A stretch of 64,000 nt of DNA. Origin: an uncultured Phycisphaerales bacterium. GTDB lineage: Bacteria > Planctomycetota > Phycisphaerae > Tepidisphaerales > Tepidisphaeraceae. The position numbers and the translations under genes are program-made. Every line of letters starts with the position of its first letter. Position 1 is the first letter of the stretch. The stretch covers positions 96,001-160,000 of the forward strand of contig CAWJPJ010000006.1 of NCBI GenBank assembly GCA_963844715.1. The letters run 5' to 3'. The notes under the pieces were generated by a model that searched no databases, was not told the origin of the DNA, and worked only from the letters and a program-made list of their open reading frames with translations. This document shows positions 56,224 through 59,214 of this stretch, in pieces.

Positions 56224-56424
56224 ATGCCAGAAAAAAATAACCAGAAGGAGTACGAGTCGCGAGCAGAACCCCTTCGCGTGCATTTGCCCCGTTTCCTTAT
56301 TGAAGACGATATCGGGTTGGGTGATGTCATTAAGCGCGCCACCTATGCGGTCGGCATAAAATCTTGCAAGGGCTGCGAACGCCGCGCGGCTTCGCTCAAT
56401 CGATTCATATCATTTCATCGATAG
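56224..56424 (+). CDS. Small CxxC protein (66 aa) in the PatG-DUF cassette
   Basis: RVHLPRFLIEDDIGLGDVIKRATYAVGIKSCKGCERRAASLNR; first of three co-oriented genes. Confidence 0.7.
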   Translation: MPEKNNQKEYESRAEPLRVHLPRFLIEDDIGLGDVIKRATYAVGIKSCKGCERRAASLNRFISFHR

Positions 56425-56479
56425 GTCGCACAGCGGAAGCGGCGTTATCGGAGGGTCGGAACGGGCAAAGGGAGCTTTT

Positions 56480-57385
56480 ATGGAAGAGCAAGCAACAACT
56501 CAGCCGATTGTGTCGGTAGCCGCACCACCGAGTGGCGGGTCGGGTAAAGCAACCTGTTCGGCATGCGGTGGCAGCTCTCCGCCTCCTGCCATCGGTCGCT
56601 TAGAGCCGGGACCCAGGCAGGCCACGTTGGTTGGGACGGTGACAGCGGCCTTCCCCAGCCTCTCGGTCGAGAAACACTTTGCCCAATTGCTTGGTCAGAA
56701 GGATTTTAAGGGATTCACAGATCGCCAAACCTTGCACGCCGTCCTTCAGAAGCCTGAAAACCGACATCTCGCTCGCAGGATGTGCTTCCTTCATACCCCA
56801 TATGGCAGCGGCGGATCTCCCGCGTACATTTTGGTACCCGAGGAGCGAGAGGACCTGACGCTTCTGGTGGATATCCTCAATCGTCCGCTGAACACCTCAG
56901 AATTTGACGTCGCCTACGGAAGAATCGTGGGAATGGCCCCGCGAGCCATGTGCAACGCACAGGAGTTGCCGATCTTATCCTTTTCCCAACTTTATTCATT
57001 CCGTCTCGAAACGTTTATAAAGTCTATTCCACGCCCAGAGAAGATCCCGGCCAAAGACTTCGAGGCGGCATGCGATGAGCTATTCCATCGGGCCATGCGC
57101 ATCGCAAGCAATGCAACCGGGAGCATGCTGGGACTCTCGTATGCCGTTTTGAGTTACGCCGGCCTATATAAGCTCGTGACCGAGAAATATAGCGAGAACT
57201 CCTCGCTGGCGTACATTGGCGTTAACCAATCCCGCGCCTGCGCGGGCTGCGCTGATATTCGCCTCAAGTTTGTTAAACGAGACACCGGGTTTGCCGAGTC
57301 CTTTGCCTTCTTAGTCAACGTTGATGGACCATTTCAATTTTTAGAGGAGCCCTTGCAACCCTCTTATGATACGTCAACGCCATAG
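56480..57385 (+). CDS. Cyanobactin PatA/PatG C-terminal DUF-like protein lacking the protease domain
   Basis: FPSLSVEKHFAQ, TDRQTLHAVL-PENRHLARRMC, PAYILVP, MCNAQELPILSFSQLYSF, FxVNVDGPFQFL resemble PatG_D/PatG_C (recognised by eye); GGGAG RBS; no S8 motifs. Confidence 0.75.
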   Translation: MEEQATTQPIVSVAAPPSGGSGKATCSACGGSSPPPAIGRLEPGPRQATLVGTVTAAFPSLSVEKHFAQLLGQKDFKGFTDRQTLHAVLQKPENRHLARRMCFLHTPYGSGGSPAYILVPEEREDLTLLVDILNRPLNTSEFDVAYGRIVGMAPRAMCNAQELPILSFSQLYSFRLETFIKSIPRPEKIPAKDFEAACDELFHRAMRIASNATGSMLGLSYAVLSYAGLYKLVTEKYSENSSLAYIGVNQSRACAGCADIRLKFVKRDTGFAESFAFLVNVDGPFQFLEEPLQPSYDTSTP

Positions 57386-57525
57386 CGGCCATTACGCTCC
57401 AAATGCTTGCCCGTTAGGATAAGAGCATGTCAAGTGGATTTACCCCTGGACGCAGAACCGATAGCTCAAGCTCCGTAATATCTCCGTTCCGGCCTAAATA
57501 ATGGCGGGTTGCTGGGAGCAGGAAT

Positions 57526-58689
57526 ATGAAAACGGCTTTGCCTGGATTCACTGCAGAGTACGGTCTCTACCAGTCAGCCGCGACTTACCGCAAGTCGAAT
57601 GCGTCGCCTGGTGCGACGATCACTGGCGCCTTCGACGACGCGGTTGAGCCATCCGGCCTGAGCAATCGAATGGGCTATGCAGGTCCACCGCACCCGGGTC
57701 GAGGCGGGCCATCTGCCTCGACTTTCCCCTTCATATGCGGTGGCGAGATTTGTACAGCGCGAGATGCATGCTGTCACGGCAAATGCACCTATTTGGGCTT
57801 CGACAATAATAATTGCGGAGCGTGTGGAAACGTCTGCAAGAACGGCATGACCTGTTCCCAAGGTTGCTGCGTGTACGCCCCACCCGACGCCGCCGTCCAG
57901 TTCGAGGGGTTTTTCCTTAGCAACTTCAATTACACCCTCTACAACGGCTGCTCGCCGATCAACGATCTAAAAGTCGTTTTCCAAGTCACGAAAGAAATGA
58001 GTGCGCCCGGAGGATTCTCGATACAACTCAACGGTTTCCAAAACAACCCCAGCAGTGCTACTACCGTCGCCGATTATTTGCAGTACGTCGTTTTTGTTAA
58101 TGGCACGGAGCTTCAGGGTGGAATTCAATATTGGAATCTTGAGGGGTATCAGAATTGTTATAACCAGACGCAAAACGCCGACGCTTGCCTTCAGTACCTC
58201 CTATACAATTCGCTGTATCAGACAATCCCCGGCGCGACCACCCCTCTGAACACCCTCCCTGCGGGATCCACAATCGAGATCGACCTCAGCCAAAGCGGCG
58301 GAAACATCACCGGGGCAACGTTTACAGTCAACACCGGCTCTGGGGGCCCTTACTCACTGGTCTTGCCCGTGCCGCAGGCGAATCAGCAATCGTTTTTGGC
58401 GTTTGAAGTGAATGTGGTGGGCTACGACGATGGCGCTTTTGGTGATTTTTCTCCCTTCGGAGCGGGGACGCTCACATATAGCATTCCCAGCGGGCAACTT
58501 ACGGTAGCGGGCACCACCGTTCCCAACCCAACAAATCTATGCACGGCGGCGCCCCAGAGTGGAGGCACGGGCGAGACATCGAATGTTTTCTATGGACCAA
58601 TGAGCCAATGCTCCGGTTCATCCATATCGCAAACGTTAATGGTGCCATACACCCAAATCCTGCCGTTCCAAAGAGACCGCTTCGGCTGA
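57526..58689 (+). CDS. Cys-rich protein with LPGFTAE leader, Stig1-like Cys repeat and beta-rich C-terminal domain
   Basis: MKTALPGFTAEYGLYQSAATYR; CCHGKC...DNNNCGACGNVCKNGMTCSQGCC; FSIQLN, YLQYVV, FEVNVVG, TGETSN; AGGA RBS. Confidence 0.75.
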   Translation: MKTALPGFTAEYGLYQSAATYRKSNASPGATITGAFDDAVEPSGLSNRMGYAGPPHPGRGGPSASTFPFICGGEICTARDACCHGKCTYLGFDNNNCGACGNVCKNGMTCSQGCCVYAPPDAAVQFEGFFLSNFNYTLYNGCSPINDLKVVFQVTKEMSAPGGFSIQLNGFQNNPSSATTVADYLQYVVFVNGTELQGGIQYWNLEGYQNCYNQTQNADACLQYLLYNSLYQTIPGATTPLNTLPAGSTIEIDLSQSGGNITGATFTVNTGSGGPYSLVLPVPQANQQSFLAFEVNVVGYDDGAFGDFSPFGAGTLTYSIPSGQLTVAGTTVPNPTNLCTAAPQSGGTGETSNVFYGPMSQCSGSSISQTLMVPYTQILPFQRDRFG

Positions 58690-58732: not shown

Positions 58733-59214
58733 TTATGTTTGTCCGCGCAGACGGCAGATGAGTCCGTCGATGGAAAACACTCCCGCCCCAAACAGCAGCA
58801 CAATCACCGCCGTCGCAAAAAAAGGAAACGCTGTATCGTTCAGCACGATGTTCTGGTTATTCCAGATATTCTGGAATAATTCCTTCATCGAAAAGTCGTA
58901 GTTCGACAATTCCACGCTGAGAATCGCGACCAGAAAATTCCCCGTCAACACCAGAGCGACGATCCGCGACGCGAACCCCACCAAAAGCAGGGCCCCGCCG
59001 ACCAGTTCCGTACCGGCCGACATGATCACGTTCAGTTTCGGCGCTGGAATATGCAAAGTCGCGAAGAACTGCATGTCTGGTCGATGTGATGCAGATGGGC
59101 CCACCCGGAAATGATCGATTGATAGCCGATATAAATTCGAATCAGTAAAAGAAAGAGTGATTGAAAGTGATTCAAAAAGCACGCGTATTTTTGATATAGC
59201 ACCAGTGGCTTCAT
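58733..59214 (-). CDS. DoxX family membrane protein (frameshift near 59075)
   Basis: LLIRIYIG...SGWAHL, FATLHIPAP, ELVGGALLLVG...R, GAGVFSID. Confidence 0.88.

Follow-up and report, generated by a model that had tools for sequence, protein, structure and literature searches.

A protease-less variant of an apparently undescribed gene cassette built around a stand-alone PatA/PatG domain in a Phycisphaerales genome

The window analysed here is a 64,000-nucleotide stretch of contig CAWJPJ010000006.1 (positions 96,001 to 160,000, assembly GCA_963844715.1) from an uncultured Phycisphaerales bacterium, whose genome, G000, is 85 per cent complete. On its forward strand it encodes, in this order, a small GLGD/CxxC protein (56224..56424, 66 aa), a stand-alone PatA/PatG domain of unknown function without an S8 protease domain (DUF; 56480..57385, 301 aa) and a leader-bearing, cysteine-rich cargo protein (57526..58689, 387 aa), which are the components and the order that define a cassette family. 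The window holds a protease-less, derived minority variant of that family, lacking both the adjacent S8 gene and the PQ motif in the DUF N-terminus that mark the usual form. The first-pass annotation had proposed a protease-less system, which is correct for this locus but not for the family: the norm is a separate PatA-like S8 gene (71 of the best 80 loci) with arrays of short cysteine-rich precursors, and because S8 is normally encoded separately, 'protease-less' describes a derived minority only. The PatA/PatG-DUF fold is known; the variant is new, and the family to which it belongs has apparently not been described before. To judge by the cysteine pattern, disulfide maturation is a better fit than the plain export or assembly first suggested, and leader-guided disulfide maturation of the cargo by the DUF and the small protein, coupled to a predicted Sec-independent release, is the reading that we tentatively prefer, with confidence that falls just short of even.

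The 301-aa protein is a member of the PatA/PatG DUF family by both sequence signature and fold, as first annotated. It matches PatG_D (E 3.3e-14, 53.7 bits against a cut-off of 27) and PatG_C (E 1.7e-5, 25.2 bits, 0.7 bit below the 25.9 cut-off), with no match to Peptidase_S8, and its AlphaFold model (mean predicted local distance difference test score, pLDDT, 87) matches only the PatG-DUF structure 4uvq, at Z 18.8 and a root mean square deviation (rmsd) of 3.4 Å over 243 residues (next match Z 5.8; Foldseek E 8.7e-12 against 4uvq). Likenesses to EspG3/VirB8 (weak Foldseek rows, E>=0.02) and to OB-fold or toxin-subunit proteins (Z about 5) lay at background level and were rejected. The sequence is 14 per cent identical to PatG-DUF and carries four cysteines, an N-terminal C26-x-x-C29 that is not preceded by the family [VIL]xPQ, a putative site of cleavage, and core C102 and C158. 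Across clades C102 is invariant and C26, C29 and C158 are at least 90 per cent conserved; PatG-DUF has Ile and Phe at the two core positions. In three further proteins (P0276, P0277, P0281) a poly-gamma-glutamate hydrolase domain (PF05908) takes the place of S8 ahead of the DUF, and LVTPSQ precedes the CxxC.

When species-representative genomes were scanned, 257 relatives came up, and the locus counts refer to the best 80 loci, which come from Acidobacteria, Proteobacteria, Nitrospira, cyanobacteria, actinomycetes and one archaeon. The three gene families co-occur in these loci as anticipated: a leader-bearing open reading frame (ORF) is present at least once in all 80 and the small protein in 67 (and in 19 of 19 metagenome loci), alongside the separate S8 gene (~290 aa) in 71; six of the nine genome loci without S8 end at a contig boundary. 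The usual form runs S8, small protein, DUF, leader ORFs, and S8-DUF fusions make up 13 of the 16 longer matches. The best NCBIfam matches of the family S8, all below cut-off, are the type VII secretion mycosin and PatA models. Among the neighbours of about 100 loci every further gene family is confined to five loci or fewer, so the cassette holds no heterocyclase, transporter or oxidoreductase, and no cyanobactin gene occurs in any of these loci. The cassette is rare and its distribution patchy (2 of 141 genomes of the same taxonomic family, 4 of 401 of the phylum and 17 of 401 from other classes), and it is also found on four plasmid records. A literature search, with subscription papers mostly outside its reach, found neither the cassette nor its leader described, nor any DUF standing on its own, and PGFTAE/MPGFTA retrieved only spider-silk matches; the PGFTAE-leader family is widespread and apparently undescribed.

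The small protein contains LPRF at residues 21-24 (LPGF in the family), a GLGD helix and C48-x-x-C51. Over 79 sequences P22, F24, G31 and G33 are invariant and C48/C51 are at least 90 per cent conserved, and the conserved stretch reads RVRLPGF; its LPGF aligns weakly to the leader MPGF (hhalign E 0.0028 over 11 columns, with a probability of only 11%), with P and F invariant in both. No Pfam or NCBIfam match was found at E<=1, and phrog_32048, of unknown function, matches 78 of the 79 members. The Atlas contains look-alike clusters dominated by viruses; annotated phage records gave no match and viral contigs one. The single phage relative that was fetched, a 46-aa protein (L146:2974-3114), keeps the GLGD...CxxC module and lacks LPGF.

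The precursors share a leader with the consensus MxxPGFTAEASLYxxxxxY...VxP and differ in their C-termini, as the first-pass annotation had supposed. The leader was matched 283 times over 104 loci (272 complete, median 86 aa), of which two are DUF frames (L091, L092), false positives that stand outside the short-precursor counts, and VxP(Q/A/S) closes the leader in 172 of 245 short precursors. Cysteine numbers are biased towards even values: 208 even against 40 odd in 253 short complete precursors, 145 against 25 after clustering, and 135 against 23 in those with at least three cysteines, compared with 504 even and 790 odd in control ORFs. Counts of 4, 6 and 8 dominate, and two-cysteine cores number 19 of 253. 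Some cores are shared across phyla (L042, L048, L051, L052, L055 and others), including an 11-member six-cysteine family starting IPxCxNCD and a 9-member two-cysteine family with LRCRANGG. In one genome (G439) 13 leader matches are scattered over many contigs, so that precursors may be served in trans.

The DUF of the window falls in a divergent group of 36 relatives at 52-73 per cent identity, below which there is a gap down to about 40 per cent. All five loci of this group with DNA context (L085-L089, the nearest to that of the window) encode the small protein, the DUF and a leader-bearing cargo and no S8, with about 620-4250 bp of upstream DNA in four and about 50 bp in one, and the S8-less trio of the window recurs at 56-66 per cent identity; the 401 phylum, 141 family and 401 other-class genomes held no further loci of this close clade. 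Trios without S8 also occur with other DUF types (L020, L075, L093, L094, L127, L148), and by identity the S8-less loci form at least three sequence groups, which need not stand for independent losses; relatives are not independent. In S8-positive loci the DUF carries a precursor-like [VIL]xPQ directly before its N-terminal CxxC. A hand count that left out DUFs without CxxC at that place, contig-truncated loci and one duplicate locus found PQ within 16 residues before the CxxC in 58 of 71 S8-positive and 1 of 12 S8-less DUFs; a scripted count over a wider stretch put the figures at 57 of 79 and 3 of 10 (Fisher p 0.012, with kin not independent). A leader ORF of at least 300 aa is present in 1 of 75 S8-positive loci and in 7 of the 9 S8-less loci for which this could be decided (long in the window, L075, L085, L088, L093, L094 and L127, short in L020 and L148; L069, L086, L087, L102 and L103 were not judgeable). 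Loss of the DUF PQ motif and large cargo both track the loss of S8.

Several S8-less loci have features of their own. At L020:6025-6666 a Fic domain (PF02661 E 2e-20, HPFSDGNGRTAR motif, 3 Cys) shares its frame with a PGFTAN leader, which could make it a tagged enzyme or be a fusion that arose by chance, and upstream of that cassette there is an ORF that looks TIR-like by eye. L127:1-1464, from a genome of the same family as the window (G455), holds another trio that looks S8-less, built on a different type of DUF and with only 388 bp upstream; its cargo consists of the leader, a DUF3238-like domain and STIG1-like repeats. An RHS-repeat gene (L088:1699-2760) is found upstream of another of these trios, and two BTAD regulators and a ferritin-like gene (L148:2792-5447) precede the Streptomyces copy. 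Of the leader, only IPGF remains in the S8-less Streptomyces precursor.

The cargo of the window is a large folded protein, as had been predicted, with a leader (aa 1-43; 57526..57654, +), a cysteine-rich STIG1-like segment (aa 71-118; 57736..57879, +) and a C-terminal beta-sandwich (aa 120-387; 57883..58689, +), modelled with a pLDDT of 82. The leader, LPGFTAEYGLY...Y with AVEPS at its end, is the single match in G000 (E 5.7e-8) and is likely disordered (pLDDT of residues 14-60 below 50); a hydropathy scan found no hydrophobic signal stretch in it. A prepilin-type reading of G-F-T-A-E was rejected, the spacing of the Glu being unlike that of the prepilin motif and no hydrophobic stretch following. 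The middle segment matches PF04885 above cut-off (E 6.6e-7) and NF041328 weakly. STIG1-like repeats are extracellular disulfide modules in plants.

The beta-sandwich has an eqolisin (G1)/neprosin/YncM-like fold. Scytalidoglutamic peptidase heads the Foldseek matches (E 3e-6), and VIA gives Bacillus subtilis YncM at Z 10.5 (rmsd 3.6, 179 aligned), neprosin at Z 8.9 and aspergilloglutamic peptidase at Z 8.2, a range of Z 8-10 in which lectin and GH16 folds overlap. Its invariant Gln/Asn residues (Q167, N169 and Q186) and near-invariant Glu (E350) are candidates for the catalytic Gln/Glu or Glu/Glu dyad of G1/neprosin peptidases. It has no sequence-level match, in Pfam or among PDB sequences, and, unlike those proteins, it is joined to a PGF leader and a STIG1-like segment. 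It may bear some likeness to a thermopsin-like motif, and a peptidase activity is plausible as a prediction from the glutamic-peptidase fold. The domain has 1024 relative clusters at E<=0.001. Among the best 150 relatives 41 carry the leader and have a median of 40 Cys (16 in the window cargo), and the 55 long leaderless ones (starting with Met and at least 340 aa, with 54 shorter or fragmentary sequences left out) have a median of 5. Starts resembling Sec, Tat or lipoprotein signals were seen by eye in 9 of the 109 leaderless relatives. The strict VxP(Q/A/S) motif is kept in 20 of the 41 large leader-bearing relatives, and the window cargo keeps VEPS.

Disulfide maturation is favored because of the LPGF/MPGF motif shared by small protein and leader, the even cysteine numbers of the precursors, and the four conserved cysteines of the DUF together with the CxxC of the small protein. 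The DUF would be the binding site of the leader PGF, which gives indirect backing to the leader recognition first proposed, since the leader and the small-protein LPGF persist where S8 is missing and the DUF is the sole other conserved partner. The small protein may dock through its own LPGF and deliver its CxxC to the DUF cysteines, forming a thiol relay, and the pair would then drive or chaperone disulfide pairing of [LMI]PGF-leader cargo before release. In the usual form S8 would cleave at VxP(Q/A/S), releasing short disulfide peptides, and would probably also trim the DUF N-terminus; in the variant of the window the large multidomain cargo would either retain its leader or lose it to a host protease, and, as a probable glutamic-peptidase-fold protein, would act outside the cell. 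A bolder form of this proposal, in our view doubtful, is that the DUF and the small protein are a soluble leader-guided disulfide relay operating without thioredoxin fold, transporter or protease, that a PGFTAE tag of ~20 residues would commit any protein to oxidative folding and to release without Sec or Tat, and that the cyanobactin DUF is a cysteine-less descendant.

A number of observations weigh against disulfide maturation by this pair. PatG-DUF is reported to run as a monomer and not to bind PatE' by nuclear magnetic resonance (PMC4259220), although it shares only 14 per cent identity with the present DUF and the precursor in question, PatE', is a different one. Flavoproteins, membrane proteins and transporters are missing from the families that recur over about 100 loci, which leaves no electron sink and no exit route in sight. 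Core C102 and C158 could be a structural pair, since Ile and Phe replace both together, and an even number of cysteines would suit metal sites, or disulfides that form once the cargo is exported, as well. Large cargo also stands beside S8 (L009) and short cargo occurs without it (L020, L148), one leader is fused to the cysteine-poor Fic domain, and many cargo-domain relatives without the leader lack any signal. Finally, two of three S8-less genome loci checked have a family S8 elsewhere in the genome (G437, G439), and G000 is incomplete.

Of the alternatives, a role in export alone fares best, though we think it rather unlikely: the DUF and the small protein would act only as a secretion chaperone or adaptor, passing unfolded leader-tagged cargo to host export or lysis, with the leader replacing a Sec/Tat signal and disulfides forming outside. 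The signal-like starts on nine leaderless relatives with the same cargo domain are consistent with it, as are the leader ORFs scattered in trans in G439, the leader on a Fic domain poor in cysteine and the mycosin model among the best, sub-threshold matches of the family S8. The absence of any recurring transporter or membrane protein argues against it, and it leaves unexplained why the DUF has four cysteines and the small protein two, why PatG-DUF lacks them and why leader and high cysteine content are associated.

It is improbable that the cysteines instead bind metal, the two helpers being a Zn, Cu or Fe-S chaperone pair that loads leader-tagged cysteine-rich cargo. A CxxC motif in each helper, precursor counts of mostly 4, 6 and 8 and the Zn seen in PatG-DUF crystals would suit such a pair, but the two-cysteine cores and the STIG1-like repeats suit disulfides better, and the Zn ligands of PatG-DUF are reported not to be conserved (PMC4259220).

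Slightly less probable again is that nothing in the cassette is protease-independent and that it still needs a family S8 encoded in the unassembled part of G000. The 85 per cent completeness of that genome, the S8 genes in trans in G437 and G439, and the VEPS site of the cargo, with the strict motif in about half of its large leader-bearing relatives (20/41), are what recommend this possibility. A search of the rest of the genome for an S8-PatA partner, which the first-pass annotation had called for, found none: the three S8 matches of G000 lie on other contigs and are unrelated to the cassette family, TIGR03895 (the PatA-type protease model) has no match, and the genome holds a single PatG_D match, one leader ORF and one cargo domain. 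A family S8 is likewise missing from G438, and it is present elsewhere in the genomes of L075 and L069 but not in those of L020 and the window; the loss of the DUF PQ motif, which parallels S8 absence, also argues against an unseen protease. That the locus is a functionless, decaying leftover of a mobile cassette or a cyanobactin cluster, as patchy distribution and lower GC might suggest, is very improbable given three frames intact beside frameshifted flanking genes, an S8-less trio recurring at 56-66 per cent identity, 36 relatives at 52-73 per cent and no cyanobactin genes in any locus.

Comparison with cyanobactin clusters bears this out, and the doubt first raised, that the locus might be a remnant of one, can be set aside. 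These clusters are described as encoding a pair of S8 proteases (A and G), both of which carry a fused DUF (PMC4663559); the locus has none. The cargo leader differs from PatE-type precursors, with their short cores between RSII and RSIII, and has no NCBIfam precursor match; the small protein has no match that would make it PatB or PatC; and the optional YcaO heterocyclase is absent from the recurring neighbours and from G000 (no PF02624 match in the 85 per cent assembled). The locus is not a cyanobactin cluster, since it fails on protease, precursor and B/C genes as these are set out in PMC4663559. The family shares with PatA and PatG the C-terminal DUF fold (4uvq; PF18047/PF18065; TIGR03895; Z 18.8), and where S8 is present, as is usual, its gene comes before the DUF in the order of PatA, with S8-DUF fusions also known; its precursors, like those of cyanobactins, have variable cores behind a leader that is conserved, and a short motif of recognition-like character. 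Unlike PatA and PatG, the DUF of the window is a separate protein with family-specific cysteines and no protease in its locus; unlike cyanobactin clusters, the locus lacks PatE, PatB/C, heterocyclase and prenyltransferase; and in place of short cores for macrocyclisation it has a 387-aa cysteine-rich folded protein.

By analogy, the cassette may also be likened to leader-directed disulfide-peptide systems without their usual parts. Clusters for sublancin/glycocin-type disulfide RiPPs (peptides made on the ribosome and modified after translation) have leader-bearing precursors with paired cysteines and accessory proteins bearing CxxC, as here. They differ in possessing a thioredoxin-fold protein, a peptidase-containing ABC transporter, a double-glycine leader and a glycosyltransferase, and neither helper of the present cassette contains a signal or a membrane segment.

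Ever since the structure of the cyanobactin DUF was determined (PMC4259220) its role has been an open question, and a 2025 paper (PMC12639078) still gives it as unknown. The locus amounts to a natural experiment in which both helpers and the leader have outlasted the protease, so the DUF must have a job beyond assisting a protease. The value of the variant is that it isolates the DUF, whose function can be tested alone, and the two helpers and cargo can be rebuilt in Escherichia coli; cultured carriers are Sinorhizobium mexicanum ITTG R7 (with S8) and Streptomyces xanthophaeus KPP03845 (without S8). If true, a disulfide relay of this kind would be a new bacterial and archaeal route to disulfide-rich proteins; its tag would be portable, and it would give access to a great many disulfide peptides that are as yet unexplored.

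The three frames are open, uninterrupted and co-oriented, as first described, each with a purine-rich, ribosome-binding-like stretch 5' of it, and they lie between acs (AMP-binding) and doxX, with truD also flanking. All three flanking genes are frameshift-split in the assembly; across window:49512-60450 pheS-like, thiC-like, acs, doxX and truD genes are broken over frames, which in housekeeping genes suggests assembly indel errors, and a soil-run contig has an extra base in doxX near 59072. The junctions acs/small gene, DUF/cargo and cargo/doxX are each bridged by short error-free soil-run contigs, possibly from the source sample and so not independent. The cassette (GC 0.51-0.58) is GC-poorer than acs (0.62-0.64) and truD (0.59-0.62), as had been noted, but doxX is likewise low (0.50). 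The slot between acs and doxX is variable, holding an unrelated TPR/GT41 gene in a genome of the same genus (G401). No insertion-type repeats were found at the locus, and promoter and terminator scans gave chance-level results, with none on the + strand. On the - strand (window:61239-62123) lies a tandem pair of paralogous ~130-aa ORFs with a repeated (R/K)xDxxTGxAW motif.

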